DNA from: an uncultured archaeon
GTDB lineage: Archaea; Iainarchaeota; Iainarchaeia; Iainarchaeales; JAAZKV01
Direction of reading: 5' to 3'
DNA: 32,000 nt
Assembly (NCBI GenBank): GCA_964551375.1
Contig: CAZKBG010000002.1
Location: forward strand, 15,558 to 47,557
A program made the translations under genes and the position numbers. A model generated the notes under the pieces. The model was not told the DNA's origin. It did not search any database and saw nothing but the letters and a program-made list of their open reading frames with translations. Below, one piece after another: positions 4,757 to 31,305 of the stretch. The first letter of the stretch is position 1. Each line of letters begins with the position of its first letter.

Positions 4757-5461
4757 GTGAAAAAGAAAATAAAACTACGAAAAAGCGCAGCCTTTGAAGA
4801 GAAATCCATTCACAATAGCGCAAAAAACTTTTTTCTTAAGTACAAGGGCTTCACATTCGCGCTAATTGCGACAATTGTGATAATTATAGCATTTCTTTTT
4901 GTTAACTTTGATATTGACTTGGCGCAGGAAAAAGCCAATTATGCAAAAGAAATGCATGAAAATAATATGGATCTTTTTATCGGATATGAAAGCGCAATAG
5001 GGGAAATAAGCGCAATTGAAGAGACAAACACGCTTAATGATGATTATACCGCATCAATGAAAGATGATGTTTTGTGGCTTAAAGAAAAAGAAAACAACAT
5101 TTACAATTCAACTCCGCGATCAGAGGTTTTTTCAAAAGAAGTTGCAATAACAATGCTTACACAGGCAATAATGCAGGTAAATTCAGATTATGCAATGGAA
5201 ACTGGACAGATAGATTATGACGACAAAATAAAAGAGTCGCTCATGCTTGAAGTTAAAGAACTCAAGCTCCTAACTGCTGAAGAAATTACCGCAACTTTTC
5301 CAACAGTGCTTGATAAACAAATATACCTTGACAATTTGAATCTGCTTTGGAAAGAATACTTTGATTCCAAACAAAGCATCATAAAAATAACCGCTTCAAA
5401 AGAAAGAAAATATGTGGAAGCAAGAAAATTAATCTGGATGACGGAATATTATCTTGAATAA
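4757..5461 (+). CDS. Hypothetical membrane-anchored protein (single N-terminal TM, helical ectodomain)
   Basis: 234-aa ORF with a GTG start. It has a basic N-terminus 'MKKKIKLRK' and a TM helix 'FTFALIATIVIIIAFLFVNF'. No motif recognised. Confidence 0.55.
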   Translation: MKKKIKLRKSAAFEEKSIHNSAKNFFLKYKGFTFALIATIVIIIAFLFVNFDIDLAQEKANYAKEMHENNMDLFIGYESAIGEISAIEETNTLNDDYTASMKDDVLWLKEKENNIYNSTPRSEVFSKEVAITMLTQAIMQVNSDYAMETGQIDYDDKIKESLMLEVKELKLLTAEEITATFPTVLDKQIYLDNLNLLWKEYFDSKQSIIKITASKERKYVEARKLIWMTEYYLE

Positions 5462-6349: not shown

Positions 6350-6422
6350 GCCTCTATGGCTCAGTTGGTAGAGCGCCAGTTTTGTAAACTGGATGTCGTG
6401 GGTTCGAATCCCACTAGAGGCT
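6350..6422 (+). tRNA. tRNA-Thr (anticodon UGU), no intron, CCA not encoded
   Basis: Manual cloverleaf fold. Acceptor GCCTCTA/TAGAGGC; D stem GCTC/GAGC; anticodon stem CCAGT/ACTGG with loop TT-TGT-AA; variable loop ATGTC; T arm GTGGG-TTCGAAT-CCCAC; discriminator T. Confidence 0.93.
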
Positions 6423-9056: not shown

Positions 9057-9299
9057 TTACTGCTCTTCAGAATCGCTAGAGTCTGAGTCAGATGGGCCTC
9101 TTCCGCCGCCTCTAAAATCAGGTCTTCTAGTTGGTCTATCGTTTTTGTGCTTCTGGTAGCAGTCTCTGCAGTAAACTGGTCTTCCTTCAATTGGCTTGAA
9201 AGGAACTTCAGTCTCTGTTCCGCAGTCAGAGCATGTTGCCTTGTGCATTTCTCTTGGGCCGCCGAAGCTAGGCCTACTTCCAAATCTTCTATTATCCAT
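9057..9299 (-). CDS. CxxC-x17-CxxC zinc-ribbon protein with RG-rich N-terminus and RGG/acidic C-terminal tail
   Basis: 'CSDC-GTETEVPFKPIEGRPVY-CRDC' has exactly 17 residues between the Cys pairs. Flanks are 'RRFGSRPSFGGPR' and 'RRPDFRGGGRGPSDSDSSDSEEQ'. A strong SD 'aaggtga' lies 6-7 nt upstream of the ATG. Confidence 0.8.
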   Translation of the reverse strand: MDNRRFGSRPSFGGPREMHKATCSDCGTETEVPFKPIEGRPVYCRDCYQKHKNDRPTRRPDFRGGGRGPSDSDSSDSEEQ

Positions 9300-9618
9300 T
9301 TATTTTTCACCTTATGTTCAAAAAAGCTAATACATCAGCAAGACGCTTTTGAGGGCATCTAATGCTTTATTATAGGGCTTTCTGTAAGAAAATTATTGGG
9401 CGAAGGGGGTTATAAAGGTTTGGAAAGGGGGTAGCCGGCAAAGCAAAATCGCTTATAAGTAACTCTTTACAGTGAAAGGAAGTTTTTTATAAGGTTTTTT
9501 ACAGAAATAATATAGAATAGCGTGGGATAATTTTTGAATCGGCGCTGTTAGCGCTGTTTTAAGTTAAGGGAAAAATTAGTGAAATTAGAGTGAAAGTTAG
9601 TGCAAGTTTACTGATGTG

Positions 9619-9792
9619 ATGAAAATGGCAGAAAAAGATGTTCAGCTTGGAATGATAATAATTGTTTTCGCGACATTTTTCTTTCTCTCGGGAGTGGACA
9701 TGCTTAGAATAAGAGTATTTGACGAAGGATTCAGCATGTTTTTAGCATTCATTTTAGTCGCAGTCGGCGTTTATATGGTGACAAAAAAGTAA
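9619..9792 (+). CDS. Small (57 aa) two-TM membrane protein; below the ORF-track length cut-off
   Basis: Hand translation gives 'MKMAEKDVQLGMIIIVFATFFFLSGVDMLRIRVFDEGFSMFLAFILVAVGVYMVTKK', stop TAA at 9790-9792. Two clean hydrophobic helices with a charged loop. It lies 137 nt upstream of the giant ORF on the same strand. Confidence 0.35.
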   Translation: MKMAEKDVQLGMIIIVFATFFFLSGVDMLRIRVFDEGFSMFLAFILVAVGVYMVTKK

Positions 9793-9929
9793 TCCTAAAA
9801 TTAATACTGTTTAAAATAAATAATTCTCTTTTTTTATGGAAAATAATCCTATTTTTTAGTTTAACTTTCAAAATTTTCCCCCTCGCAAGGTTTATTAACG
9901 AAAAAGCCCTTTTTTAGTGAAAAAACCAA

Positions 9930-12900
9930 GTGATAAAATTGGGGCTATATTCTGGGCTTGAAGGTAAGTGGTACGACTTTTTAGATGCTTTAGACAGGGT
10001 AATCCCTGTTTATGCAATCATTAATCCAATAGAGAAAGTAGTTCCAAGCTTTCCGCTATTTATTGTTGTACTTATACTTGTAATTTTAGGATTATTCTTT
10101 TTCTTAGGCGGAGGATTAAGCTTTGGAAGCTACTCGCTTGAACTTACAGTTCTTGACAAAAACGGGGACAGCGTCAGCGATGCGCTTGTGGAGCTGACTC
10201 AAACATGCGAAAATTCCGAATTGGATAATTTATCCGTGACTACAAATGATGAAGGGAAAGCTTTTTTTGAGCCGTGCGGACAGGCAGTTGAAATAAAAGT
10301 TACAAAAGCAAATTTTACAAAATTTGAAGGGACAGTATATCTTCCTGAAGACTCAAAGAAAAAAGTTACTCTTTCAGAACTTATTTTTATTGACAAAAAG
10401 CTAAAAGTCACCATTGTTGACGATGTGGGCGATTATATCTCAAAAGCAAAACTTTCCATGGCTTGCATCAGAGGAGGAAGCGCTTCAAAAACAGAAGTAA
10501 AATCCCCTCTTCCTGATAACTACCAGCCTTCAGGAGGATTTGAAATTGACGTGAACGGAAACTGTGAAGGAGTACGGCTTGAAGCAACTGCAAGCGGGTA
10601 TGAAACAAAAACAGTTTCAGTATTAAGCGATGAAACAACAAAAACAATCAAGCTTGAAAAAATAATTCAAAATGGAAACGCAAATTTTGCAACTGACAGC
10701 CCAATCGGACCGCAGGTTAGAACAGAAATATTAATAAGCGGAGAAAATAATTTTGAAAGGACATTAATCACACTAATTGACGGAAGCGTTGAAGCAACAC
10801 TTCCCCAAGGGCACTACACATACTCTGCCATAGTAAAAGGATTTGTTGAAACAGGAAATTTTGATGTGACTGCAAATGAAACAACCGATGTTTCAATTTA
10901 TTTTAGCGAATTAATTAATAATATAAATGACGACCCGACAAACCCTGAAGTAAAAAGCTTTTACCTAAAATTAGTTGACGGAAATACAGGTGTAAATCCT
11001 GCTGATTTGCAGGTATTTGTTCTCAAAGGAAATGATGTGAATAAATTAAGATTACTAAAAACAGACAGGGCTGGAATAATACAGCCTTCGCCTATAAACG
11101 ACACTAACGGAAAAACTTACAAAGGGCTTGCAAAAGCGGAAGGGTACAAGAAAAAACCAATTGATGTTGAGGTAAGAACATTTTCGCAGGGGCCTCAGAA
11201 TGTAACAATGCAACAGGGCGGAGCAACGTTAACTCTAAAAATTGTGGATGACTTAAATGCCCCTATAAAAGAAATAGTTCCAAAAATATACTTTGATGAC
11301 TTTGACGGGGTATTTGACCTGCTTGCCCAGACAAGCACTGCTGGAATTACAACTTATCGCGGACTTCCGAACGGGAATTACATAATTACTGCAAGCACAG
11401 CGATTGAAGAAGGCTCGCTATCCTTCAGTGTAAACGGAACCGATCTTGAACTAACACTTGTTTTATCAAACGCAAAAGGAAAACTGGATTTGGCGATAAA
11501 TGACGAATATGAAAAAGCAAAAGTTGAAATAAATTACGCTGTGGAGAAGAAGTTCGGCGATGAATTCAGCGAAGTGTTTAAGGGAATTTCATTTAACGGC
11601 GACGGAAACACTCCTTTAATCAATGCCGGAAGCTATGTGAGAATATTAATAGACGAGCCTGGTTTTTTGCCTTATGAAAGCTTTGTTTACCGAATCAACC
11701 GCACAACATCATCAAGCGGAAAAGACAAAACAATGTTTTTGAAGAAAAAATCCTCCCTTCCAAACCAAAAAGAACTGCAGATGATGCTAAGAGAAATTTA
11801 TTCAAGCAATCCAATAACAACCTCTGAAACAGTTTCTAATATTCTCCAAAAAGGGAAAAGATACTATCTTCTTTTTGACCTTGTTTTAAACAATAATCAA
11901 AGCCTGCCTGTTACAATCAGCGCATCAGTTGAACCGACTGAAACCGCTCTTTCAAAAGGAATGCGAATACAAAGCGGATACTCGGTTAACGGCTCAACTT
12001 ATGTGCTTTCTTCCCAGCCTACTTCATTTTTAGCGGACACAAATCTTGTTGATGCTGACGCTAAAAAAATAAATATAGTCATTCCTGATGCAAACGGGCC
12101 AAAAGTAATTCCGGTATTAATTGAATTTACTTTAGATGCCAACGCAACCGGAAAGCAGAAGCTGTTTTGGAAAGTAAAACAAGGCGCTAACGAAAGCCTG
12201 CAATACTCAAAAGAATTTGAAGTTGACAAAGCAATCTGCATGCCAAATAAAACAACCTGCCCCGATGTTATGTTCCTAAATTATTTGAACTGGAACAATA
12301 AAGGATGGGTGCTTATTGACGATTCGACAAAGAAAGTACAGCTTGGAGACACTTATGCTATAAAAACAATAGCGCAAAATATGGGTGATAAAGAAATAGG
12401 GACTGTTAACCTTACTGAAGAGCTGACTGCGTCTGATGCCCAGTACTTCAATTTAATTGACAACGGCGTTGACAAAAATTCAATGTTTAAAGTTGTGAAT
12501 GTAAAACCTCTTGAATTAACTGACGCGGTTGTAACAACATTAAATCTTAAAAAAGTTTCAGGAGGAGGAATCGGAGTAAAACAATCCCTGCGAAAGCCAG
12601 GGACTGACCAGAGCTTACTCGCGCTGAAAGGAAATCCAGACACAGGGGTAAGGCTTCAGGTTCAAAACAAGAAATTTGTCCAAATAAAAATATTTGCGAC
12701 AAATGTTCAAAATACAATATACGAAGGGGGAGTGTATCCTTACTTCTTTGTGAAAACAACTTTGAGCGAAACTGTGGCAGGATCAGGATATCCTGTTAGA
12801 GCAACATGGTCCGCAAAACTTGAAGGAAGCGACACTTATCTACCCTCAATGAGCGCAAGGCAGACTGATGAAAACGGAATTGAAGTTACAAGCTTTGACG

Positions 12901-15900
12901 CATCAAATCTAAAAATAGGGGACAGGGTTGTATTTGAAGCAATTGATGAAAATAATTCAATTCCAGTAAAACTTACTGTGACAGTAAAAACTGCAATAGA
13001 AACTCCTCCAGAAGAACAGCCTGAATGCCTAAAAGTAATGGTTGATGGAAGAGATGTTACTGGCATTGAATTTCCTACAAAAGAAATGGATGTGTCAATG
13101 CCTTCATCAATTTCCGTATTCTCCGCATGCGAAGAAAATAGGGATGTTGGAGTGTTAACAGACCTTCAGCAGTTAAGCCCCACAAGATTTATTATAAATC
13201 CAAACACAATGTACTCAATTTCGCTTGACGCAAACGATGTTGTAACCACACGCAAAGGAATGCTTGGAGTATACCCAGTTCAGGTAATTGCATTTGAAGC
13301 TGAAAAATACCACCAAGTTGACATGGTGGATATGATTGTAAGGGACAGAACCGCTCCGTTTGACATAAATTACCCTATTTTTGATTTTAGACAGGCGCAG
13401 ACTATCGCAAGCAAAATTATAAATAAAAAATACGCTGGCAGACAGGATGTTTATCTTCCAAGAGTTGAAATGGACGAGCCCGGAATTGAAATAACTTACA
13501 GAAAAAACGGGGTTCCAAGAAAAATTAATTTTAAAATACAAGTTGAGACAAAAGCGCTTGAAGCAATCACAATAGGATACTTAATATCTCAGGGGCTGAC
13601 TCAAACAAAAACAGGGAGTTCATGCGCTGGAGTTGCTGTTGGAACATTTTACGCGCCAGGCGCTAACGAAAGCGAATATTTTAAACTAAGAAGCGAATTG
13701 AGCTCGGTTTGGAGCGGAGTAGTAAGCAAATTCCAAAATAAAGGCACTGCTCCAAGAACTGACACAACCGCGCTAAATAGAAGCAGAACAGTTCCATTTT
13801 ATTCCCTTCCAAAAGAAGTGCAAAGCGAAATAATCTCAACGCTTTATAACGAAAGCGGATCATCTTCTTCCGTAACAGGAAGCGGACAGCTTGAAGAAAA
13901 TGAAAAAGTTGCAAAAGCATCATTTGCTTTGCAGGATTTGCCTCTTTCAAATAACACAAGTCCAGTTCATCCTGTAGTTGGGGCAATTTATGAAACTTAC
14001 CCTGATGTAATAGGACAGCCGAATGTGATGCCAAGAACATGCTATGAAGTAAGAAAAAATTGGACACTTACCCCTCTTCCAACGCTTGCTGATTATGATA
14101 TTGTAAATAACTGGAATACTGTTATTGAAGACAGCAACGGAAGATTATTTGTTGAATCAATAAATAAATGCACATACTGCGATATACTTTCATTTGGTTA
14201 CTTTGATAGCCAGTCGCTATCTTCACTTGTTACGACAAATGGAAGCACACTTGATAACTGGTATGGTGGGCATACTAATAACTCGGGGACAATAAAGCTA
14301 AGGCATGAGTTAATCAGAATAATGACGCCTGTGATTGAAAGAACTGTTACTTGGGATAAAAATGTTGAAATAATTCCACAGGAAGGGAAAATTTATGACC
14401 TTGGGGATTACAGCAGCAGCGTAACAAGCCTTATTCAAAAGTGGCCAAATAGCGTGACTTATAATGGAAGAAGCCCTGGCGATGTTTGGACTGAAGGGAC
14501 GACAAGAGTAACATATGCTGGCTCAATAAATGACGGATTCATACCATTTAGCTGGGCAAAGAAAAATGGAGTTGGCTATGCTGTTCCTGATGTGAATATT
14601 CCTTCTGTTGAATTTTATGGAGCAGACGCTTACGGAACAAATCAGTGGAAATACAGTAAAATAAAAAGCATACCAGCTGAAGCAAGCGGAGTAAGATTAT
14701 TTTTAAATAACAAACACCTTTACGGAGAATATATCGGGACATACAAGCAAACTCCTACTGGATATGTTATTGACAACAGAGGAGTAATTGATAGCAATGT
14801 AATTGATTTTAATATTACAAGAGCTGAATTTGCTGGCTCAAAATATGCAATAATTAAAGTAACCGACTGGGTTTCGGGAACGCAAAAAGTTACAAGAAGC
14901 TTCCAAGTAAGACTTGTCGGAAGCGAAGCCAACTGTTATAGTCCTGAAGGATATGAGGGAGTAAGCGGAGCAGAGTTCCAGACAAGACTAATGTACGATT
15001 GGGACTGGGCAAAAATTGCTCAAAACCAGTGCGACTTGGGGAATATGTCTTACACTTACTGCGACGGCGCGCAATTTAGCGTAAGCCTTATGAAAAAACT
15101 AATGCTGATTGATAATTTACTAAAAACAGGCGCACGAGAACAAATCCCGACTCACACAAGTTTTTACTCCTACTTAATCAAAGACAATTACTCGCAAGGA
15201 CTGCTTGATGATTTTGATGAATACTACTCAGGAGGAGCATTTACAACAATTGGATTCAATACTGTTGGGGATAATTTAGGATTTGACCAATTTATCAGCG
15301 AAAATAAAATAAGTTTTAGAGTCAGAGATGCTGAAGGAAATGTAACTGAAACTGGACAGCTTCCTTCAGGCGGAATATACCGAGTTGAAATAGATTTTAA
15401 TCTTGAAAATCAGAATATTAATTCACTGATGAAAAATGATGGGCCTAATGCGAGAATAATTGTTACTTTTTCAAAATATGCTTCTCCTCAGACAAACAAT
15501 CCGTTTTATGAAATTCCATTTGACGGAGAACTTGGAAAAGTGGGCAACACTTATGGAAGAAGAGAATATGGAATTGGAATAAGCGACTTGAGTCTAAAAT
15601 TAAACAGCGCAGGGACTATGGCTCTTCCTGCTGCAAATCCGATGAAATCAATTACTTATGTTACTTCAGAACAGCTTGATAAATTAAAAAACGGAGCTGT
15701 GCTTTACTATAATGAACTTGCGAACAGGCTTGAGTTTTATCCTCAGCAGCCGACTCCGGTAGTTATGAGCGTGACAGGAGCTCCTCCAACAGTTACTGCT
15801 GAATATGATTTGCTTGGATTTGACAGAACGACTCCTATGAAAAAAGAATGGATAATGAAATCATCCACAATCGGGGATAAGTGCACTGACTTTTCTGGAG

Positions 15901-16301
15901 AAAGAAAATTATTGTTTAATGAAACTGTTAACGGAACAAAAAGGACAATTTCTTGGACAAACACTGCGGAGAGTGGAAAAGTAAACCTTGCAACAATCTT
16001 CTTCACCGCGCCAAATAAAGACACAAGCGTTACAAGACAGGCTGGAAGCACAGTAGTTGAACTAAAAACAACAAAGAAAGCTCCTGGACTTGTTAACGGG
16101 CCTTCAATAAAACTAAGCTATTATGACACAAGCGGAATAATTGGATATGATTCGCTTCAGTGGGTATTTGACCAGGTAAAAGCAGGAAATATGTGCATGA
16201 CAAAAGACCCTAAAAATGAAATAAGAGTATGGTGGAGACCAACATACCTTGACTCATTAATTAAAGACGTTGATGTTGATGTTACTTCATGCGGCGAATA
16301 A
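9930..16301 (+). CDS. Giant (2123 aa) N-terminally membrane-anchored surface protein P1: about five CarboxypepD_reg-like beta-sandwich modules, a long beta-rich ectodomain, and a C-terminal module shared with the next ORF
   Basis: Uninterrupted 6.4-kb ORF with a non-ATG start (GTG 9930 or TTG 9939; in-frame stop at 9918-9920). N-terminal 'KWYDFLDALDRVIPVYAIINPIEKVVPSFPLFIVVLILVILGLFFFLGGG' contains one TM. Repeated ~85-aa modules such as 'LELTVLDKNGDSVSDALVEL...TNDEGKAFFE' and 'ATLTLKIVDDLNAPIKE...GLPNGNYIITAS'. No catalytic motif recognised. Confidence 0.8.
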   Translation: MIKLGLYSGLEGKWYDFLDALDRVIPVYAIINPIEKVVPSFPLFIVVLILVILGLFFFLGGGLSFGSYSLELTVLDKNGDSVSDALVELTQTCENSELDNLSVTTNDEGKAFFEPCGQAVEIKVTKANFTKFEGTVYLPEDSKKKVTLSELIFIDKKLKVTIVDDVGDYISKAKLSMACIRGGSASKTEVKSPLPDNYQPSGGFEIDVNGNCEGVRLEATASGYETKTVSVLSDETTKTIKLEKIIQNGNANFATDSPIGPQVRTEILISGENNFERTLITLIDGSVEATLPQGHYTYSAIVKGFVETGNFDVTANETTDVSIYFSELINNINDDPTNPEVKSFYLKLVDGNTGVNPADLQVFVLKGNDVNKLRLLKTDRAGIIQPSPINDTNGKTYKGLAKAEGYKKKPIDVEVRTFSQGPQNVTMQQGGATLTLKIVDDLNAPIKEIVPKIYFDDFDGVFDLLAQTSTAGITTYRGLPNGNYIITASTAIEEGSLSFSVNGTDLELTLVLSNAKGKLDLAINDEYEKAKVEINYAVEKKFGDEFSEVFKGISFNGDGNTPLINAGSYVRILIDEPGFLPYESFVYRINRTTSSSGKDKTMFLKKKSSLPNQKELQMMLREIYSSNPITTSETVSNILQKGKRYYLLFDLVLNNNQSLPVTISASVEPTETALSKGMRIQSGYSVNGSTYVLSSQPTSFLADTNLVDADAKKINIVIPDANGPKVIPVLIEFTLDANATGKQKLFWKVKQGANESLQYSKEFEVDKAICMPNKTTCPDVMFLNYLNWNNKGWVLIDDSTKKVQLGDTYAIKTIAQNMGDKEIGTVNLTEELTASDAQYFNLIDNGVDKNSMFKVVNVKPLELTDAVVTTLNLKKVSGGGIGVKQSLRKPGTDQSLLALKGNPDTGVRLQVQNKKFVQIKIFATNVQNTIYEGGVYPYFFVKTTLSETVAGSGYPVRATWSAKLEGSDTYLPSMSARQTDENGIEVTSFDASNLKIGDRVVFEAIDENNSIPVKLTVTVKTAIETPPEEQPECLKVMVDGRDVTGIEFPTKEMDVSMPSSISVFSACEENRDVGVLTDLQQLSPTRFIINPNTMYSISLDANDVVTTRKGMLGVYPVQVIAFEAEKYHQVDMVDMIVRDRTAPFDINYPIFDFRQAQTIASKIINKKYAGRQDVYLPRVEMDEPGIEITYRKNGVPRKINFKIQVETKALEAITIGYLISQGLTQTKTGSSCAGVAVGTFYAPGANESEYFKLRSELSSVWSGVVSKFQNKGTAPRTDTTALNRSRTVPFYSLPKEVQSEIISTLYNESGSSSSVTGSGQLEENEKVAKASFALQDLPLSNNTSPVHPVVGAIYETYPDVIGQPNVMPRTCYEVRKNWTLTPLPTLADYDIVNNWNTVIEDSNGRLFVESINKCTYCDILSFGYFDSQSLSSLVTTNGSTLDNWYGGHTNNSGTIKLRHELIRIMTPVIERTVTWDKNVEIIPQEGKIYDLGDYSSSVTSLIQKWPNSVTYNGRSPGDVWTEGTTRVTYAGSINDGFIPFSWAKKNGVGYAVPDVNIPSVEFYGADAYGTNQWKYSKIKSIPAEASGVRLFLNNKHLYGEYIGTYKQTPTGYVIDNRGVIDSNVIDFNITRAEFAGSKYAIIKVTDWVSGTQKVTRSFQVRLVGSEANCYSPEGYEGVSGAEFQTRLMYDWDWAKIAQNQCDLGNMSYTYCDGAQFSVSLMKKLMLIDNLLKTGAREQIPTHTSFYSYLIKDNYSQGLLDDFDEYYSGGAFTTIGFNTVGDNLGFDQFISENKISFRVRDAEGNVTETGQLPSGGIYRVEIDFNLENQNINSLMKNDGPNARIIVTFSKYASPQTNNPFYEIPFDGELGKVGNTYGRREYGIGISDLSLKLNSAGTMALPAANPMKSITYVTSEQLDKLKNGAVLYYNELANRLEFYPQQPTPVVMSVTGAPPTVTAEYDLLGFDRTTPMKKEWIMKSSTIGDKCTDFSGERKLLFNETVNGTKRTISWTNTAESGKVNLATIFFTAPNKDTSVTRQAGSTVVELKTTKKAPGLVNGPSIKLSYYDTSGIIGYDSLQWVFDQVKAGNMCMTKDPKNEIRVWWRPTYLDSLIKDVDVDVTSCGE

Positions 16302-19300
16302 AAAACAAAAAAACGGGTAAAAAAATGGCTAAAGAAAGAAATAATTCTGAAGAATATCCTGATTATAAAACAAGTTACGCTGCCGAAAACGCTGAAGGCG
16401 GGTTTCCTATAAAAAAACTGCTGGTAATTGCGGGGGCAGTTGTAGTAATAATAATTATAGCAATACTTGCAATAAACCTTCTTGGGCAGACAAATAACGC
16501 GCTCTTTTATGATGTGTTTGGAAATATTTTGGGCTCAAAAGTTAGCATCTCAAAAGACGGGAAATTAATCGACTCATTTAACACTGACGGGGATGTGCTT
16601 CATTTGTCGGGAAACCCAAACGGGGATATTGATGTGGCAGTAAGACCCGGGAGCATATTATTCTCAAACAAAAATATTTCAGTCAATCTAAAATCAGGAG
16701 GAAAAATTGTAGTCAAAACAAGCCAAAGCGGAGCGGTTTATGTTGATGAAAATGGAATAGTTCATGTAATAATTAACCCACTTGAAGACTTAAATATCCC
16801 GGGGCATTACGATGACGAAACAGGCGAATTTATTATTGACGACCCGAATGTGGAAATTATTATAGAATATGTAATAGACGATCCAGACAGCGGCGAAACA
16901 GTAATTGTTGAACTTGAAGCGGATTTATCACTTTTAGAATCCCAGCAGGACGGATGCCTTTCATTAAGCAAAACAATGGTGAGAGATGTTACTCACTACG
17001 GAACACTTGAAACACCGACTACAATAAAATTACTTTGCGAACCGCAGGGGGAAATAGTAGCATTGCTTGAATGGAAAAGCGAAAGAATGGGAAATGTTGA
17101 AGTGGTATTTGGAAATTATTCATCCTCAACCCTTCTTGAAAAATATGAAAAGCCGATATTAATGCCAAAAGATTATTCTTACAATGCAAAAATAATTTAC
17201 ACTCCATTTAAGGAATTTGCAGGGCAAAAAGCGCAGTTCAATGTGAATATTCGATACGAAGCAAGCAAAGGCTCAATACAATTTGACGTCGCAAATGACA
17301 ATCTTGAACAGTGCATTGGAATAACTCCTGAAAAACTTCTTATCCCAAAAGGACAGGATGAAACTTCTATTACAATTGACGCTTCCACATGCCATTCTGA
17401 AAAAATTGAAGTATATCTCTGCGACGGCGACAGCGGATGCACTGGAGGCGCGCCAGAAGGGCAGATTGGAGTAGAACAACAAATGTTTGTATTAAGCCCA
17501 AAATCAAATCCTAAAAAAACAATCACTCTCTCAAGAGTGGATTTGCCTGGAGCTTATGGAATTACAATTCACGCAAGAACACCAAAAGCTGACAAAATAT
17601 TAATCGGAGAAGAAACACTAATTGTTGAGCCAAACGGAACAGAAGAACTTACTCCTGATAAATTTGTAATATCTTTAATGGGCGGAGCAAAAGACTCAAT
17701 GAGAATAACAAATACTTCCTTAGCTGAAGACATTGATGTTGACGCGTCAATTTGCTCGGTGTACAAAAATTCGCTTGGAACAATAGCCGAAAGCGAAGCA
17801 GGAAGCAATTACGGAATGGGCTTTCATAATGTGAGCGTATACTCGCAATCCTGGTGGAAAGACTTAAGGACAAGCTCGTCTAAATTTTCAGGAGACGGAA
17901 AATACCAAGCCGCTTTTACTAACACACTTGTTGAAATTGATTACCTTAGATACATAGCGCAGGCATACTCCGCAGAGAAAAATTACAAAATCAAAAAATC
18001 TTACATGGACCTAAAAGGAATGCCTGTAAAAGCGCAGATTTTGGTTGACGAAGCTGCGGTTGGAGTAACTAAAGCGCAGGATTTGAAAGATAAAATGGAC
18101 GCGGCGAATGAATTTGCTGAAGCAAATTTTGCGAGCCAGATTGTTTCTACCATAAGTTCTATTACAGGGCTTGCGACAACATATGCAATTCTTCAAATAG
18201 ACCTTACAACCTTGCAGGGGTATATTGAGACAATTAATGCCTGTCCGCCAGCAGTAGCTCCTTTGAAAGTTGCTACTCAAGCGCTTGCAAGAGCAAACAG
18301 TTCTACTGCAGTAAATGTAGCCACAGTTGCTGAGGGGATAAGCGCGGTAAATAGTATTTATTCAATATATCAAAATGTTGACAGCGTGACAAAAGAGACT
18401 GATGAAATAAATGCTACTGGCGCGCTTGAAGAAGCTAAAAACGTGCAGTCAAAAATAAAGGATGCAAAAAGCAAAATTGACAGTGCAAATAAAAATGTCT
18501 CGCTTGCGCTTGGCGAAGCCTCAATTGATGAATTCAAAAAATCTTCCGAACAAGACTATAAAGCAGAGGAATATTTGCGAAAAGCAAGAGAGGATATGCT
18601 TGATGCAAATGCGCTTTTAAAAGAAGCATTAACTTCGCAATTAAAAGCGAATGATTTTATCACAACAGTGCTTCCTGAATTGCCAAGCACCTCAGACACT
18701 GTTGTTCAAGGAGTTCAGCTTTTAGTTCAGCTTGTTACAATGCTTGGGATTGTTCATACACAAAGCGCCTTGATACAGGAAGCAATAACTGAAACATCCG
18801 CCGCAATGAAAGCCACTACAAGCGCTGTTGCCAGCGGGTGCAGCGCAGTAGCAACTTCAGAAGCATGTTGCCCTGTAATAGGCACTGACACAATGGCTGA
18901 AATAGAAGTGTCAAAATTACAGGCAAATTCTGCACTCTCTGTTGCAAGTGCATTATCAGTGCTTAACGCAGTTCAAACGGTATACTCAGCTTTTAGCACT
19001 TACAACACAATGACAAACGATTACACTGAACAGTTCAATAAAGTAAACGAGCAGTTCTCAACAAATGTTCAGGATATTTATGATATGCAGGATGAAGTAA
19101 AGCAGAGCCTAAAGAGCCTGCCTGAAGGAATTGACGCCGCAGAGTGGCTTGGGGATAAGGAAACGCAGGCAAGCAAAGCCGCAGGATACAGTTCAATAGT
19201 TGATTTGCCTGAAAGCTATAATAAAGAAAGACTCACAGGGCTTATTGGAACTGCTTTGATAAACGGATTTGTAAACGGGGCATACATCGGAGGAGTGTAT

Positions 19301-21520
19301 AATACAAAAGACACTACTTTTACAACAAGCGCTTCAGCGCTTAATACTGCTGCAAAAGAAAAAGATGCTAATACAAAAAAAATAAGCTTTGAAGAGAATA
19401 ATTTTGGATTAAAAGAAAACTGCGACAACATGGTGAGAATCACAGTTCCTGATTATAAAACAAATTTAATGCAGGACGCAAAACCGATAACAATCTCTCT
19501 TGACACAGTAAATGCAGTGTGGAGCTTTGATGAAGCAAAAGTATTTGATGTATTTGAAAGCCAGGAAGTGGGCGTAATTTTTGCAAATGCAGGGCTTAGA
19601 AAAAATTCTTTTGGAACAGTTGAATTTAAGGCAACTAAACATGAAAACGCAAATCCCTCAACTGTGACAAGCGGAACGTTCGGACCGTTTAATGTTCCTG
19701 ATATTTCACAAAATGAAATTTCGCAAAAATATCACATTAAATTCAATGTTGAGCCGAGAAAGGGGAATACATTCGTTCCTCTTCAGAATAATTTGTGCAC
19801 TAATGAGCTGTTAAGGGGAAAAAGCGGAAGCGCCGCGCTCCCTAATATATTATTTTCTTGGGACTGGAACAGCGTTGCGGGGCTTGGCGCTTTAAAAAAT
19901 CCTATAAAACAAAATACTTTTAGAACTGCAAGAATCGGAACAGGCGAGGGCGAGCCTTTTATTGACGCAGTGCAATTAAGCATACTAATGAGCAAAAAAC
20001 TCGGCGCGTTAAATTCTTTTTTAAGCCAAAACACGCTTGAGTGTCCAACCAATCCTTCAAGATTAATACTTGGCGCGATAAAACCTGTTATTGTTGATAA
20101 GGACGGACAATTTGCCGACAAGGAACTGGAAGATATTGAATTTGACTGCTTTATGCCCTTGACGACAAAAACTTATGACGGCAAGCCGGCTCTTTATTAT
20201 TATTTAACATCCTCTCCGTTAAATGAAGCTCCTGAAGGAATAAGCGACGCCGAGGTTGTGAGCACTGCTGATGAATTTTTAGGACTTGTTGATTTTAATG
20301 CAAACCTTATGAGAGACGGATACGGATTTGACATGCAATATGATTATGCTGACAGCTATTCAAGAAAAATACTTGTTGCTGCGCCGTCATTTTTGGACTC
20401 TTCAACGGGAGCAAAAAAGTTCTTCCTTGACAAAGACAGATTGTTTTACACTTCTGAAGCAAATTTCTTCCTTGCTCAAAGAGCGTGGAATCTTCCTGAT
20501 GCTGGAAAATACAGGGTTAGAATGCTAATTGATTTTGACGGATATCCTGCCATATTTAGAGGCTCTTCGCCTGCTGCAAAAATAAAAGTTGAATTATATT
20601 CTCTTGAGCCTGTAAGCTCAAATTTCAGCCCGTTTTATTACGTGCCAATAGACGGAGCAGTAGGAGCTGAAGTAAACAATAACCGCTACGGATACGGAAC
20701 ATCACTTACTGGGCCTAATCCCGAGCCAATAATGGTTTCAAATACTGATTCAATCGCGCTTGTTTCAAGACAAAAAGATTCGCTTGTAAAGATACTTGAA
20801 ACAAAATTAAGCAGATTTGGAATAGAAAACTACTCGCCTTCTCTTAGAGGAAAAGTAATCACGCTTCAGTATAATTATAATACAAAAACACTTGATGATG
20901 GAAATTCATACTTCCTTTACTCTCCTGTGGTTGGAACTCCTGTTATTGTAAAAGCAAACGGGACTGCTGGAGAGAGCACAGCATATGTTTATTCTTTACT
21001 ATTTAATGGAAGAGAATTTGACCCAGGAACGCAAAATCTTCTTCTTTGGACAGGAGTAAACAGCTGCACAAATCTTGCAGGACAGCCTATAACAAAAAAT
21101 TATAACAGGACAGGGGATTCAGTTCTTGGAGGCGCGTATTCAATAAATCTGCCAAAAAGCGAGGTGGGCGGCTCGACTTTACTAAAAACAGTTGTATATT
21201 CTCCGATTGATGATATGTATGCAATATCAAAGCAAGAAAACGGAGCAATGTACACAACAGGCGAGCCAAATGGTGCTGCAAATCCAGTTGCGCTTGCAGG
21301 AATTACGGGAATGTATGGAAACGACAAAGCAAACGCTTCAGTTCCAAATTATCTTGAAAGAATGTTTGCAAGCGTTGAAAAAGGAGATTTGTGCATTTCA
21401 AGAACAAGCTCAAGAGAATCAATGTGGTGGAGCGAGGAAAGTTTGTTTAAGAAAAGTCTGGCTGGAAAAGAATCTCTTTACCAAAGAGAAGAAGCGCTAA
21501 AATCACAATGCGCAAGATAA
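16289..21520 (+). CDS. Giant (1743 aa) N-terminally membrane-anchored surface protein P2: beta-rich N-terminal part, ~400-aa alpha-helical A/S/T/Q-rich insert, and a C-terminal module homologous to P1
   Basis: Uninterrupted 5.2-kb ORF. The start is either ATG 16289 (13-nt overlap with P1) or ATG 16325 ('MAKERNN'). Single TM 'LLVIAGAVVVIIIIAILAINLL'. C-terminal blocks align with P1 (see findings). Confidence 0.8.
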   Translation: MRRIKNKKTGKKMAKERNNSEEYPDYKTSYAAENAEGGFPIKKLLVIAGAVVVIIIIAILAINLLGQTNNALFYDVFGNILGSKVSISKDGKLIDSFNTDGDVLHLSGNPNGDIDVAVRPGSILFSNKNISVNLKSGGKIVVKTSQSGAVYVDENGIVHVIINPLEDLNIPGHYDDETGEFIIDDPNVEIIIEYVIDDPDSGETVIVELEADLSLLESQQDGCLSLSKTMVRDVTHYGTLETPTTIKLLCEPQGEIVALLEWKSERMGNVEVVFGNYSSSTLLEKYEKPILMPKDYSYNAKIIYTPFKEFAGQKAQFNVNIRYEASKGSIQFDVANDNLEQCIGITPEKLLIPKGQDETSITIDASTCHSEKIEVYLCDGDSGCTGGAPEGQIGVEQQMFVLSPKSNPKKTITLSRVDLPGAYGITIHARTPKADKILIGEETLIVEPNGTEELTPDKFVISLMGGAKDSMRITNTSLAEDIDVDASICSVYKNSLGTIAESEAGSNYGMGFHNVSVYSQSWWKDLRTSSSKFSGDGKYQAAFTNTLVEIDYLRYIAQAYSAEKNYKIKKSYMDLKGMPVKAQILVDEAAVGVTKAQDLKDKMDAANEFAEANFASQIVSTISSITGLATTYAILQIDLTTLQGYIETINACPPAVAPLKVATQALARANSSTAVNVATVAEGISAVNSIYSIYQNVDSVTKETDEINATGALEEAKNVQSKIKDAKSKIDSANKNVSLALGEASIDEFKKSSEQDYKAEEYLRKAREDMLDANALLKEALTSQLKANDFITTVLPELPSTSDTVVQGVQLLVQLVTMLGIVHTQSALIQEAITETSAAMKATTSAVASGCSAVATSEACCPVIGTDTMAEIEVSKLQANSALSVASALSVLNAVQTVYSAFSTYNTMTNDYTEQFNKVNEQFSTNVQDIYDMQDEVKQSLKSLPEGIDAAEWLGDKETQASKAAGYSSIVDLPESYNKERLTGLIGTALINGFVNGAYIGGVYNTKDTTFTTSASALNTAAKEKDANTKKISFEENNFGLKENCDNMVRITVPDYKTNLMQDAKPITISLDTVNAVWSFDEAKVFDVFESQEVGVIFANAGLRKNSFGTVEFKATKHENANPSTVTSGTFGPFNVPDISQNEISQKYHIKFNVEPRKGNTFVPLQNNLCTNELLRGKSGSAALPNILFSWDWNSVAGLGALKNPIKQNTFRTARIGTGEGEPFIDAVQLSILMSKKLGALNSFLSQNTLECPTNPSRLILGAIKPVIVDKDGQFADKELEDIEFDCFMPLTTKTYDGKPALYYYLTSSPLNEAPEGISDAEVVSTADEFLGLVDFNANLMRDGYGFDMQYDYADSYSRKILVAAPSFLDSSTGAKKFFLDKDRLFYTSEANFFLAQRAWNLPDAGKYRVRMLIDFDGYPAIFRGSSPAAKIKVELYSLEPVSSNFSPFYYVPIDGAVGAEVNNNRYGYGTSLTGPNPEPIMVSNTDSIALVSRQKDSLVKILETKLSRFGIENYSPSLRGKVITLQYNYNTKTLDDGNSYFLYSPVVGTPVIVKANGTAGESTAYVYSLLFNGREFDPGTQNLLLWTGVNSCTNLAGQPITKNYNRTGDSVLGGAYSINLPKSEVGGSTLLKTVVYSPIDDMYAISKQENGAMYTTGEPNGAANPVALAGITGMYGNDKANASVPNYLERMFASVEKGDLCISRTSSRESMWWSEESLFKKSLAGKESLYQREEALKSQCAR

Positions 21521-21565
21521 AATCCAAACTTACTTAACAGAAAAGTATTTTTAAGTTCTTGTAAA

Positions 21566-24328: not shown

Positions 24329-26515
24329 TTACTTTTTTTCAACTGGAACCAAAAGTATTTTTGTTCTTACAATCAAATCTCTTTTTGATGGATTATATAC
24401 AATGCTTTTAGTCAGAGCCTGTGATTTTTGATGAGTTCTTCTTTCAAGCTGGCTTAATTGTTCTTTTGTTTCTTCTCTGATCTTTGAGAGTTTGTTTTTT
24501 ATTTTCAGGCTCTTAAATTTTAATGCCTTAATTTTCTTTTCCAAAACATTGATTCTTGCGGTTTTTTCGGCAAGCCTTTTATTTCCAAACAGCTTTCTGA
24601 CAAATCTTTTTGAATTAATGCCCAAAAGAGCGGTTCTTAAAGAATCAATTTTTTTGTTGTTTAATTTTAGAACGCTTAATATTTTTGTTTGCTTAATCTC
24701 CGACTTTTCAAGCAAAAGGCGTTTTGAATATTCTAAATCTTCTTTCATAAATGAATAATTTAATTTAACAACAGCTCCTCTTTTTTCTTCAATCCCTTTA
24801 GTCACCTTGCTTGAATAAACCTTTTTCTTAAGAGAGCGCTGGCTTTGGGATATTGACTCAAAAATCAGCTTTTTTACGCTTCTTTTTGGATTTAAAACAT
24901 CATAATTATACTTTACAATTTTTTTCCAGTCTGCATTTTGAGGCAATCTGGATTTGGAATTTTTTGCGGACAAATCATAAATAAACGGTTGAGTTGCCGG
25001 AAATATTTTGCCCTTGAAAGGCTTAGGCTCGATGGTAATGCTTAGAAAAGTTTTATACTTTAAAGCGTCTTTTGTTGAAGTGAAAATTTCAGTGGTGTTT
25101 GAATATTTCTGCGATTGTGCTTTTAATCTTTTCAGGACTTTTGATGAATAATCTTTTGGAAGAACAGGAGCTGGCTTTATTTTATCCATTTTTGGTAGTT
25201 TTAACTCTGAAGTTATTTGCGGACGGCTTTTTGCATCATTGACCCACCCGATTTCTTTCTCATTTAAAGGCCCAAAATGATAGCTGTAAACCCACCTTGA
25301 ATGAATTTTGGCATTAATATTTTCAACTGAATTATTATAATAAAAATCCCCTGTGTTAAAACCAAGCAGAGATTGCTTTAGTCCTGTTGTGGAAATTCCA
25401 ATAGCGGTTGAAACTTTTTCAATATCATTATCTGTTCTTAATTTTCCGATAAATCTTGTCCCGATGTTTCCCAATACTTTGTAATCAATATCCCCGGGGT
25501 TCTGCGTGGCTAAAATTATTCCTAATCCAAATGCGCGCGACTGCCGTATCAGCGTTTCAAGAATCTTTTTGCACGGAGGATTTGCGGGAGGCGCAGGAAA
25601 TAAGCCTGCAATCTCATCAATGTAAAGAATATACTTTAATTTTTCAGAGCCTCCTTTGTGCAATAAGAATCTGTAAATTTTGTCAAGAATCTGCTCAACC
25701 GCATACTGTTTGTCTTCAGTAATGCCTGTGAATCTCAAATCAAATACTGAAAGAGTTTTTGGGGCGCACATTTCTTCAATTTGTATGTTGTTTTTTGAAC
25801 GCCACGCCTGCTTTGACGGAGAAGAAAGTATGAGATTTACCGATGAAGCTATTTTTTTCCGTTCAGCTTCTTTTAAAAAATCATCAAGCGAAAGAGTCCC
25901 AAGGTTTTGAAAAGGAGGGTGGATTATCTGTGGTATTAGTGTTTCTAAAGTCAGGTTTTTGCTTTCAAGCCAGCTCTTTAGGATAATTGATGATAAAAGG
26001 GATTTAGACTTTTCTTTGTTGTTTTTAATTTCTGCCAGATTGCAGATTGATTCAGCCAACGGCTCAATAATCATTGTGGCAAGTGTGGGGTCTTTTTCAT
26101 AAGCTTCAATAAAATTTTTTGGGCAGGAAAGATCTGGAATTAAGTTGACTGAAATTCCAATTGAAGATTTTGGAGTGTATATTTTGGTTTTTGTTTCAGA
26201 AAGCTTTTCAAGCCCGCCCAGTTTTGATGAATCAAAATTAGACAAGTAAGTTTTTTGGATTTTTTCAGCGTTTTGCGCAAAAGGACGGAAATCAAAAGTT
26301 TTGCTTACAATTCCAAGCCCCCCTATATCGCCTTTAGGGTCAATTGCAATTATTGGAATTCCGTTTGACAATGCTTCTTCAATAAGCACTTTGCACATAA
26401 CTGTTTTTCCAGAACCCGTAGTTCCAAGAACCGCGGCATGCTGGGTTAAATTATTCAAGTCATAAACTGCTTCTTTTCGGTTTTCAATATTTTTTCCAAT
26501 AAAAGCAGATTTCAT
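24329..26515 (-). CDS. HerA/FtsK-superfamily P-loop ATPase (YjgR/DUF853-like N-terminal ~440 aa) with ~290-aa Lys/Ser-rich, partly coiled-coil C-terminal extension
   Basis: Walker A is 'VLGTTGSGKTV' (about 26402-26425 on +), followed by 'IPIIAIDPKGDIGG'. Walker B is 'YILYIDEIAG'. The block 'ILATQNPGDIDYKVLGNIGTRFIGKL' resembles, from memory, HerA-like YjgR proteins. The C-terminal tail 'KKIKALKFKSLKIKNKLSKIREETKEQLSQLERR' looks like coiled coil. Confidence 0.75.
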   Translation of the reverse strand: MKSAFIGKNIENRKEAVYDLNNLTQHAAVLGTTGSGKTVMCKVLIEEALSNGIPIIAIDPKGDIGGLGIVSKTFDFRPFAQNAEKIQKTYLSNFDSSKLGGLEKLSETKTKIYTPKSSIGISVNLIPDLSCPKNFIEAYEKDPTLATMIIEPLAESICNLAEIKNNKEKSKSLLSSIILKSWLESKNLTLETLIPQIIHPPFQNLGTLSLDDFLKEAERKKIASSVNLILSSPSKQAWRSKNNIQIEEMCAPKTLSVFDLRFTGITEDKQYAVEQILDKIYRFLLHKGGSEKLKYILYIDEIAGLFPAPPANPPCKKILETLIRQSRAFGLGIILATQNPGDIDYKVLGNIGTRFIGKLRTDNDIEKVSTAIGISTTGLKQSLLGFNTGDFYYNNSVENINAKIHSRWVYSYHFGPLNEKEIGWVNDAKSRPQITSELKLPKMDKIKPAPVLPKDYSSKVLKRLKAQSQKYSNTTEIFTSTKDALKYKTFLSITIEPKPFKGKIFPATQPFIYDLSAKNSKSRLPQNADWKKIVKYNYDVLNPKRSVKKLIFESISQSQRSLKKKVYSSKVTKGIEEKRGAVVKLNYSFMKEDLEYSKRLLLEKSEIKQTKILSVLKLNNKKIDSLRTALLGINSKRFVRKLFGNKRLAEKTARINVLEKKIKALKFKSLKIKNKLSKIREETKEQLSQLERRTHQKSQALTKSIVYNPSKRDLIVRTKILLVPVEKK

Positions 26516-26610: not shown

Positions 26611-27324
26611 TCAGCTTTTGTTTTGGGAAGCGGACCAGATTCTAAAAGCATCTTTATTGCCTTCATTAAACTCGTACTGCATAAAAGTCTGGGTGGAAGT
26701 CAGTACCCTCTGTAAATCAGCTTCATTTGCTCCGGCTGATTTCATGAAATTGTACTGCGTGTACGCGCAGTCAGCTTCGGAAAACGAAGTGTTTGTATTA
26801 TTTGCAAAAGCATGGCAGGCTTCATGAATTACAATTCCCGCAACATATTCATTAGAGCCTGAAAAAACCGCAATCAAAGTCTTGTCTCCCGTCTGTTTTC
26901 CTGAATAAAGCATTCCGGGATCTGTGGCATAAACTGTTGAAAGATTATCAAGCACAAAGCGGGTGTAATTACAGTCTTTGGCTTCAATAAATGTTAAAAC
27001 TTCAACAAGCTTATTTCGATACATTGAGTCGCCTGTGAGAGCGATTGAATTTGTGCCGCATTTTGACGAAGCAAATGTGTTGTTTTGAAAATATGAAGCG
27101 TATAAAATTACTGAAACTATTATCACTAAGAAAAGAACAATCCCTGCTGTGATTAGCATCAAGCTCATTGAACTTGACTTTTTGTCGCCGTAAACTTTAT
27201 TCACAATAGGCTCCACTTTGGCTTTTGCTTCAGGGCCGAACTCCGCCTCAATCTTAAGAAGAATATTTTTCTTAGTCATTCCTGCCTTGATGTACAAATC
27301 AAGCTTTTCTTCAATTGAAGTCAT
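26611..27324 (-). CDS. Membrane-anchored protein with extracytoplasmic HExxH motif (putative zinc metallopeptidase-like domain)
   Basis: A cytoplasmic helical N-terminus is followed by the TM 'LMLITAGIVLFLVIIVSVILYASYF'. The ectodomain has 5 Cys and 'AGIVIHEACHAF' (HExxH at about 26812-26826 on +). A single short motif is the only functional evidence. Confidence 0.5.
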   Translation of the reverse strand: MTSIEEKLDLYIKAGMTKKNILLKIEAEFGPEAKAKVEPIVNKVYGDKKSSSMSLMLITAGIVLFLVIIVSVILYASYFQNNTFASSKCGTNSIALTGDSMYRNKLVEVLTFIEAKDCNYTRFVLDNLSTVYATDPGMLYSGKQTGDKTLIAVFSGSNEYVAGIVIHEACHAFANNTNTSFSEADCAYTQYNFMKSAGANEADLQRVLTSTQTFMQYEFNEGNKDAFRIWSASQNKS

Positions 27325-31257: not shown

Positions 31258-31305
31258 TATTAAAATTAAAAATTAAAAGTATTATTTATAGTGTTGGTTA
31301 TTTTT

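Follow-up and report, generated by a model that had tools for sequence, protein, structure and literature searches.

The closest published analogue in kind to the proteins considered here is SPEARE of Nanohaloarchaeota, giant proteins with a proposed role in cell contact (Hamm et al. 2019, PMC6642349). The proteins in question, P1 and P2, are encoded side by side on a stretch of 32,000 nucleotides (nt) from an uncultured archaeon of the Iainarchaeota (contig CAZKBG010000002.1, positions 15,558 to 47,557 of the forward strand), referred to below as the window, in which all coordinates are given. SPEARE and, as predicted, the window pair are very long, mostly extracytoplasmic DPANN proteins with a single anchor and adhesion-type beta domains; like P1 and P2, SPEARE takes up around one or more percent of a genome of ~1 Mb, and it has been proposed to contact other cells. 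It differs in carrying serine protease, laminin-G, toxin-like, and cytoplasmic restriction-endonuclease domains, none of which is found in P1 or P2, and in having its anchor mostly near the C-terminus, whereas P1 and P2 are anchored N-terminally and are defined by a C-terminal module of their own. No sequence relationship between SPEARE and P1 or P2 was detected. The reading pursued here, to which we would give slightly less than an even chance, is that P1 and P2 form a heteromeric, membrane-anchored surface structure for contact with cells, surfaces, or polymers.

Other described surface proteins share individual features with the pair. SlaB and the tetrabrachion of Staphylothermus have a C-terminal anchor, and SlaA is without one. 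SlaB and tetrabrachion resemble P2 in combining a membrane anchor with a long helical stalk in one partner, and SlaA and SlaB of Sulfolobales, like P1 and P2, are large beta-rich surface proteins encoded by adjacent genes (bioRxiv 10.1101/2023.10.27.564410). P1 and P2 depart from these surface-layer (S-layer) systems in that both are N-terminally anchored, that they are paralogs of each other, and that relatives carry them in multi-gene arrays; neither a sequence or fold match to SlaA, SlaB, or tetrabrachion nor any testable mark of membership in these groups was found. Within DPANN, the surface proteins SLP_Mh (Micr_00292) and NEQ300, from Micrarchaeota and Nanoarchaeota, likewise combine an N-terminal hydrophobic segment with beta-sandwich domains, but they are ~100 kDa S_layer_N/MSTP-like (PF05123) proteins, and P1 and P2 are 2-2.5 times larger. 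Micrarchaeota hold both PF05123-type S-layer proteins and members of the P1/P2 family. Bacterial adhesins with repeats of immunoglobulin (Ig)-like domains (Big_1, SpaA, CarboxypepD_reg, and alpha-2-macroglobulin-like MG arrays) are of similar size and have comparable N-terminal prealbumin/Ig-like arrays, with weak matches to common Pfam families. P1 and P2 lack the thioester, isopeptide, RTX, LPXTG, and autotransporter elements of these adhesins, the adhesins lack the C-terminal module, and the matches between the two extend to generic beta-sandwich folds only.

The gene pair and its common C-terminal module

P1, the type-1 giant protein (9930-16301, + strand; 2123 residues, GTG start), and P2, the type-2 giant protein (16325-21520, + strand; 1731 residues from ATG 16325, or 1743 from ATG 16289), are encoded by co-directional open reading frames (ORFs) that together make up 36% of the window, with coordinates and lengths as given in a preliminary description of the sequence. 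The P1 stop codon is TAA 16299-16301, so that ATG 16289 creates a 13-nt overlap and ATG 16325 a 23-nt gap. Both geometries, which that description had offered as alternatives, are present, and orthologs favor ATG 16325: an ortholog of 74% identity begins with MAKAKK, aligned to M13 in the numbering from ATG 16289 that is used for all P2 residues here, and at the related locus L034 the P2 ORF opens just one codon ahead of the Met aligned to M13. The non-ATG start proposed for P1 was borne out as well, since the GTG is kept in orthologs behind a conserved TATA-like motif and residues 1-40 are conserved in distant homologs.

Full-length orthologs of P1 (73% and 34% identity) and 25 full-length homologs of P2 (32-74% identity, 1635-1887 residues) were found. 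The ratio of nonsynonymous to synonymous substitution (dN/dS) against the 73-74% identical orthologs at L034 is ~0.12 over the whole length of both genes (~0.13 for P1 and ~0.11 for P2), with dS close to saturation in this comparison; these values indicate that both genes are under purifying selection. The pair is present on two independent assemblies and also at orthologous loci, which together with the dN/dS values shows that P1 and P2 are real genes, rather than chance ORFs or the assembly chimera that had been named as a possible refutation.

Comparison of profiles built from 25 P2-family and 7 P1-like sequences revealed that the C-terminal parts of P1 (residues 1584-2113; 14679-16268, +; hhalign and BLASTP) and P2 (residues 1061-1722; 19469-21454, +; hhalign and AlphaFold model) are homologous, with an hhalign probability of 100% (E 8.9e-59, 520 aligned columns). 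BLASTP aligned P1 residues 1668-2102 directly with P2 residues 1168-1714 (E 2e-7). On these alignments, P1 and P2 are judged to be ancient paralogs, termed type 1 and type 2, with a common C-terminal module of ~550-700 residues. The two proteins are real and conserved, and through the module, which the preliminary description had missed, they are related to each other and not independent.

A profile of the module recovered P1 with an E-value of 3e-158 and P2 with 6e-298. Exhaustive HMMER searching of 1.84 billion cluster representatives (clusters at 50% identity) returned 760 proteins at E <= 1e-3, of which 492 were at E <= 1e-30, whereas a word-indexed homolog search with the same profile gave 4 matches. 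Among the best 150 of the 760 matches, the module lies at the extreme C-terminus of proteins of ~1400-3100 residues, truncated fragments excepted. P1 and P2 share the family traits of a lone strong N-terminal anchor, a length of 1400-3100 residues, and a C-terminal module. Where names are given, family members are assigned to 'Candidatus Micrarchaeota' or 'Candidatus Diapherotrites'; a scan of GTDB with the P2 family recovered 24 loci from about 22 species-level genomes, the named ones being Candidatus Iainarchaeum. Annotation pipelines label some homologs 'carboxypeptidase regulatory-like domain-containing' or 'SpaA ... pilin-related', and no description of the P1/P2 family was found in the literature.

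The module has the lowest dN and is the most conserved part of both proteins. Its motifs, matched by P1 and P2 alike, are WxW, D..Q(L/F)S, LMRDGYG, PDAGxYR, P.DG..G....R.GYG, and a terminal C...W...C; its invariant positions include the WxW, D..Q, a K, several Asp, PxDGxxG, RxxYG, and three cysteines near the C-terminus (in P2, D1226, Q1229, K1236, D1343, D1352, D1455, R1466, W1191, W1193, Y1408, and Y1469 are among them). An AlphaFold model of P2 residues 1000-1743, computed with the family alignment, has a mean predicted local distance difference test (pLDDT) score of 81 and a predicted template modelling (pTM) score of 0.80, and consists of a disordered linker, a small beta-sandwich, a mixed alpha/beta part, and beta-rich domains. 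Foldseek comparison of the module model with the PDB and BFVD gave no match at E <= 1e-3. No Pfam model covers the module, and the module and P2-family profiles gave chance-level helical or short matches only when compared with the PDB. Neither protein could be placed in a named family by the Pfam, NCBIfam, PDB profile, and Foldseek comparisons, in agreement with the preliminary description, and the profile searches that it had proposed revealed no full-length homology to a characterized S-layer or adhesin family.

The degree of conservation in the module invites the alternative that it is a novel tethered enzyme or lectin acting on a polysaccharide, a protein, or a host envelope, with the N-terminal parts serving as a spacer. 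The low dN of the module, its invariant D, Q, K, R, W, and Y residues, and the identity of the best weak Foldseek matches (jelly-roll, CBM35, and TNF-like beta-sandwiches, TM-score < 0.1) are consistent with such an activity. The Pfam, NCBIfam, PDB profile, and Foldseek searches, however, yielded no enzyme family match, and the conserved set is dominated by invariant Gly, Pro, Trp, and Cys, as in structural cores, so that this explanation is considered unlikely.

Predicted membrane anchors and protein architecture

P1 begins with a conserved segment of the 'EDKYY..L..PVY..IDPIDKVVPSF' type (residues 1-40; 9930-10049, +), which is probably cytoplasmic and is kept in homologs labelled Micrarchaeota or Diapherotrites that have just 18-20% overall identity; P39 and F41 are invariant. 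It is followed by a predicted signal-anchor helix (residues 41-62; 10050-10115, +) with a maximum Kyte-Doolittle (KD) hydropathy of 3.21 and a hydrophobic core at residues 41-59 (KD 3.2), and no other segment of P1 reaches KD >= 1.2. The corresponding helix of P2 (residues 44-65; 16418-16483, +), with a KD maximum of 3.5 at residues 44-62, is preceded by K/R, and basic residues stand immediately N-terminal to it in all homologs. The hydrophobic cores are 20-22 residues long, with K/R on the N-side in homologs, and by eye no A-x-A-like site was seen. Strong anchors are general in the family, the median N-terminal KD maximum being 3.0-3.3 in all classes. The charge pattern, together with the extracellular-type domains, the conserved cysteines, and the acidic ectodomains (isoelectric points 4.8-5.1), argues for a probable N-in/C-out topology of P1 and P2, in which the helices may be uncleaved signal-anchors. 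The view that each protein has one N-terminal hydrophobic helix and a predicted extracellular bulk was thus supported by the hydropathy maxima, the Ig-like and prealbumin-like domains, and the cysteines. The further statement that no other transmembrane (TM) segment follows applies to P1 and calls for qualification in P2, in which a glycine-rich segment corresponds to TM-like stretches of distant relatives (see below); moderately hydrophobic stretches occur in the helical region of P2 at residues 804-829 (KD 1.8) and 982-1003 (KD 1.3).

Downstream of its anchor, P1 contains a prealbumin-like beta-sandwich of the CarboxypepD_reg family (residues 70-147; 10137-10370, +; Pfam PF13620, E 2.1e-8, above the gathering score), the first domain of an N-terminal prealbumin/Ig-like beta array that is followed by a long uncharacterized beta-rich middle part and the module. 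This was the only Pfam match of P1, and P2 had none; the absence of a recognizable enzymatic domain was in this respect corroborated. NCBIfam, PHROGs, and PADLOC gave no matches for either protein, and neither has a PF05123 or other S-layer family match in Pfam or NCBIfam. Homologs match CarboxypepD_reg, Big_1, SpaA, and MG-type domains. The labels alpha-2-macroglobulin-like and isopeptide pilin-like, given to some homologs by annotation pipelines, do not fit the pair: the MG3, MG4, and SpaA matches of the homologs are faint or sub-threshold, and P1 and P2 have neither a thioester (CxEQ) nor an above-threshold SpaA domain.

P2 is arranged in the order anchor, about four Ig-like domains, helical region, glycine-rich segment, linker, and module. 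A model of residues 61-1100 (pLDDT 73, pTM 0.46) is all-beta at residues ~72-487 (16502-17749, +; pLDDT mostly 70-87) and continues with very long helices. For the beta part, Foldseek returned tandem Ig arrays (titin, KIT, PTP-delta, and antigen I/II; E 1e-7 to 1e-4), which are generic likenesses; the structure prediction suggested in the preliminary description thus led to generic Ig arrays for the beta part of P2 and to no PDB match for the module. The beta region includes a Cys-rich part (residues 207-490) whose cysteines are invariant in the P2 family and which is homologous to residues ~1140-1450 of distant type-2 proteins of 2400-2700 residues, the downstream members of the gene arrays described below (E down to 5e-36). 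Because of this correspondence, P2 of the Iainarchaeum clade is taken to be a shortened type-2 protein without the ~1000-residue N-terminal Ig array of its distant counterparts.

The long-helix region of P2 (residues 538-964; 17900-19180, +) was modelled by AlphaFold as helices of 38+72, 50+36, 44+54, and 108 residues, which form four arms with lengths of 112, 92, 104, and 108 residues. The invariant C652 and C860 sit in turns 1 and 3, that is, at the same end of an up-down-up-down bundle. Spacings between landmarks are nearly constant across the 25 P2 homologs (W523 to C652, 132 +- 2 residues; C652 to C860, 207 +- 7; C860 to G984, 127 +- 2.5), and the sequence between them is poorly conserved, with the highest dN of the protein. 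Judging from the one-dimensional output of the model, the region may be a rigid antiparallel four-helix bundle of ~16 nm with an exposed, fast-evolving surface. Constant arm lengths in the face of sequence divergence are what might be expected of an envelope spacer or scaffold, in which the bundle would be a molecular ruler that sets the width of the pseudo-periplasm or anchors an outer layer, and the syntenic position of P2 throughout the clade would suit such a part. This explanation accounts neither for the multiple paralogs and the fast-evolving helical surface nor for the large conserved globular module, and it is regarded as quite improbable.

Between the helices and the module lies a hydrophobic glycine-rich segment, LTGLIGTALINGFVNGAYIGGVYNT (residues 979-1003; 19223-19297, +; also written LTGLIGTALINGFVNGAYIGGV), which is near-invariant in the P2 family, with G984, G997, A998, G1002, and Y1004 conserved, and has a KD of 1.3. 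The linker that separates it from the module varies from 28 to 216 residues. At the equivalent site, distant type-2 proteins have glycine-zipper stretches of 20-50 residues, several of which reach the hydrophobicity of TM helices (KD 2.1-2.9) and precede a conserved DPC motif. For two of these distant stretches, Pfam Gly-zipper families were matched below threshold (E 8e-5 and 2e-4; 22.7 bits, where the cutoff is 28.9), whereas the P2 segment itself has no such match. Distant type-2 relatives resemble Gly-zipper_YMGG, Gly-zipper_Omp, and 'Glycine zipper 2TM' in having a GxxxG-rich stretch of 40-50 residues; those families, however, are small bacterial outer-membrane or bacteriocin peptides and not parts of giant archaeal proteins.

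These features raise the question of a membrane-active device, in which the glycine-rich segment, carried on the helical bundle, would insert into the host's or the cell's own membrane to form a pore or bridge or to promote fusion, as an element of the connections between DPANN and other cells. The conserved position of a hydrophobic glycine-rich segment in type-2 proteins, its near-invariance in the P2 clade, the distant members with stretches of 45-50 residues that are as hydrophobic as a TM hairpin, the sub-threshold Gly-zipper matches along with weaker ones to bacteriocin and P22 gp7 families, and the long helical arms with cysteine-containing turns could all be accommodated. In P2, however, the segment is only mildly hydrophobic, contains Asn residues, and forms, in the model, a helix that runs on from the bundle region; the Gly-zipper matches fall below gathering scores and involve low-complexity sequence; no known pore-forming or fusion protein was among the top Foldseek matches; and a likeness to the layouts of fusion proteins is putative. 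A membrane-active role is accordingly given a low probability.

Gene order, transcription, and proposed assembly

The clade of the window has the backbone zf_Tbcl_2(-), small57(+), [P1(+)], P2(+/-), Tyw1(-), DUF2666(+), PAP2(+). All related genomes examined have one copy of P2, at a syntenic position. Among ~20 interpretable related genomes, eight have P1 ahead of P2 in the same direction, four have P1 and P2 convergent, and 8-9 have P2 beside small57 without P1; synteny is thus conserved for P2, and P1 is adjacent to it in about 60% of relatives only. P1-type genes also stand alone at other loci (e.g., L051 and L054). Two tandem P1-type genes were observed ahead of P2 at L035 (1944-14878), L045 (1-11054), and L048 (9941-22916), which are Iainarchaeum-type loci. 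As some genomes have tandem copies and others none, the number of P1 genes at the P2 locus varies from 0 to 2.

Instead of one P1 ortholog, several lineages have two consecutive ORFs, divided at roughly the same place (~residue 1100 of P1) and overlapping in those loci that were checked. The lengths in residues are 779+ and 1330 (L002, L003, and L039), 1027 and 1339 (L040), 1097 and 1612 (L038), 618+ and 509 (L010), and 1528 and 843 (L026). Possible causes are a gene split that has been conserved, a programmed frameshift, and a recurrent effect of assembly or of pseudogenes.

Upstream of P1, a BRE/TATA-like motif (B recognition element and TATA box), AAGGTTTATTAA (9887-9898, +), is a putative promoter. 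At least 10 P1 orthologs carry it at a distance of 31-40 nt ahead of the GTG, and 5 others show close variants of it. A separate motif, AAAGTATTTAAA, precedes the ATG of most P2 orthologs by 35-45 nt, within gaps of 75-165 nt, and does so even directly behind P1. By itself AAGGTTTATTAA is not enriched in the window, where 1.5 matches with up to 1 mismatch were expected and 3 were found, so that the probable promoter role of the motifs is argued from positional conservation. The A-rich P1-P2 junction of the window (16302-16324, +) contains no P2-type motif; since the gap has shrunk to 23 nt and the motif is absent from it, co-transcription of P1 and P2 is likely in the window genome. The ancestral arrangement, as judged from the orthologous loci, is that of two transcription units. 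The single transcription unit suggested in the preliminary description is thus likely for the window, but a co-directional pair is not the conserved state of the clade. Between the P2 stop, which it closely follows, and the convergent Tyw1 gene lies a one-mismatch P2-type motif, AAAGTATTTTTA (21542-21553, +), perhaps left over from an inverted arrangement or there by chance (2.0 matches expected, 2 found).

A broader survey, comprising 72 metagenome loci recovered with a P1-like profile and three contigs of P1-like homologs, revealed that module-bearing giants of 2200-2900 residues occur mostly in co-directional arrays of 2-3 genes. Upstream array members resemble the N-terminal part of P1, and downstream members are homologous to the Cys-rich region of P2. 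Type 1 stands ahead of type 2 in every co-directional array in which both were recognized, including the window. This conserved stoichiometric gene order suggests that type-1 and type-2 proteins are subunits of one structure.

In the heteromeric contact structure that we favor, uncleaved N-terminal signal-anchors would hold P1 and P2 in the cytoplasmic membrane, with >1650 residues of each projecting outward. The homologous C-terminal modules would be a conserved assembly or recognition unit joining type-1 and type-2 chains into a heteromeric structure that reaches through the cell envelope and serves in contact with other cells, surfaces, or polymers. Its exposed, variable element would be the helical bundle of P2, with cysteines at the distal turns.

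Several observations weigh against this structure. In ~40% of related genomes P2 has no P1 beside it, and in others the two are convergent; because adjacency is variable, an obligate 1:1 complex of P1 and P2 is not required in the clade. Neither the window nor the Iainarchaeum-type loci contained, within 10 kb of P2, the accessory genes that follow distant arrays (C0-C6 and C10, see below). An active, metal, or sugar site could just as well be built from the invariant D, R, K, Q, W, and Y residues of the module, and as the module fold matched nothing, the module may have an enzymatic role. Attachment of an episymbiont to a host, as the preliminary description had suggested, would be one form of contact; we can only infer it. 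The nearest named relatives belong to Candidatus Iainarchaeum, a DPANN lineage proposed to be free-living (PMC10936187).

The same gene order and architecture could also describe a two-component S-layer or an S-layer anchoring system of the SlaA/SlaB or tetrabrachion kind, with P2 as a helical stalk and P1 as a beta-rich canopy. Two large adjacent genes with acidic ectodomains, the combination in P2 of an anchor, beta-sandwiches, and a long helical stalk of conserved length, and the single-copy, syntenic occurrence of P2, as for a core envelope component, all fit such a layer. P1 and P2 each have their own anchor, however, and the locus is without P1 in ~40% of relatives; there is no enrichment of N-glycosylation sequons (27 where 22.5 are expected, and 14 where 17.7 are); and the paralog arrays of 2-4 genes in relatives are unfit for a lattice monomer. 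Micrarchaeota, which also carry the family, have a different, experimentally supported S-layer protein of the PF05123 type and 101 kDa (bioRxiv 10.1101/2021.04.28.441871), and DPANN S-layers have been reported as MSTP-like beta-sandwich proteins (bioRxiv 10.1101/2024.05.28.596244). A sequence or fold match of P1 or P2 to a known S-layer domain was not found, and the S-layer explanation is regarded as unlikely, to about the same degree as the enzyme or lectin.

Several small proteins accompany the giants. A 57-residue two-TM protein, small57 (9619-9792, +), is encoded directly upstream of P1; its homologs adjoin the P1/P2 locus in 18 related loci (hidden Markov model (HMM) E 1e-11 to 3e-29) and are co-directional with P1 wherever P1 is present. 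A zf_Tbcl_2 zinc-ribbon protein (CxxC...CxxC, with an acidic Ser/Asp tail; 9057-9299, -) is divergent with small57 in nearly all related loci, and the ~320-nt intergenic region between them (9300-9618) has no Rfam or tRNA match.

Downstream of distant arrays, among L031-L105, a recurrent set of genes without Pfam matches was observed (e.g., L031, 24334-26201; L033, 18070-20281). It consists of two four-TM proteins of ~125 residues (23 loci), a three-TM protein of ~92 residues (21 loci), a four-TM protein of ~107 residues (17 loci), proteins of ~155 (10 loci) and ~500 residues (14 loci), and coiled-coil proteins of ~194 (15 loci) and ~160 residues (9 loci). The small polytopic proteins form a series of 4-5 (~125, ~106, ~86-92, ~107, and ~130-190 residues) in 17-23 of these loci, with the ~500-residue and coiled-coil proteins behind them. 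A relationship of small57 to the distant ~107-residue four-TM protein, hinted at by phmmer (E 0.005), was rejected by HMM search and by hhalign (probability 1.5%). The accessory set fits a dedicated envelope apparatus. In a more far-reaching form of this idea, the P1/P2 family would constitute, with the accessory membrane and cytoplasmic proteins, an unrecognized envelope machine in which the type-2 bundle and glycine-zipper engage the host's or the cell's own membrane; we consider this improbable, a little more so than an S-layer.

Neighboring genes and significance of the family

The window is rich in surface proteins beyond P1 and P2, as judged from three further genes. A 1093-residue protein (33-3314, +) contains four Big_12 Ig-like domains (Pfam E 1e-45); its ORF opens 32 nt from the left edge of the window, and its 5' end may lie outside. 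It is followed by a 421-residue protein that has a signal-like segment at the N-terminus and a TM segment at the C-terminus (3385-4650, +) and a 234-residue single-TM protein (4757-5461, +). Near the right edge, adjacent paralogs (30580-31257 and 31291-31995, both +) each combine a hydrophobic helix at the N-terminus with collagen-like G-x-y repeats (Pfam Collagen, E 2e-15 and 1e-10) and a C-terminus that contains Cys; the local GC content is 0.43-0.48, against about 0.37 elsewhere. The sole RNA gene detected in the window is a tRNA-Thr (TGT; 6350-6422, +).

A HerA/FtsK-like ATPase of 728 residues (24329-26515, -), whose best PADLOC matches are 'mad8' and HerA defence models (E 7e-22), has a 237-residue single-TM protein upstream on the same strand (26611-27324, -). 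The two genes are absent from the syntenic position in L004 and may thus be a variable insertion, possibly a defence element. The ATPase was considered as a partner of P1 and P2 and rejected, being non-syntenic in relatives and matching defence-type models.

Among DPANN archaea, Iainarchaeota and Micrarchaeota are without a defined molecular apparatus for contact with other cells. What the locus adds is a group of giant surface proteins of archaea that share a novel conserved module and are characteristically organized in arrays. The module, modelled confidently yet unmatched, merits definition as a family. Even if P1 and P2 were mere generic adhesins, the annotation of some homologs as 'carboxypeptidase regulatory-like' or 'SpaA pilin-related' would be corrected. 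The locus also provides targets for proteomics, cryo-electron tomography, and AlphaFold-Multimer in cultivated Micrarchaeota co-cultures. Should the envelope machine, improbable as it is, prove to exist, it would be a candidate for the hardware of DPANN intercellular bridges, specific to the Iainarchaeota/Micrarchaeota branch.

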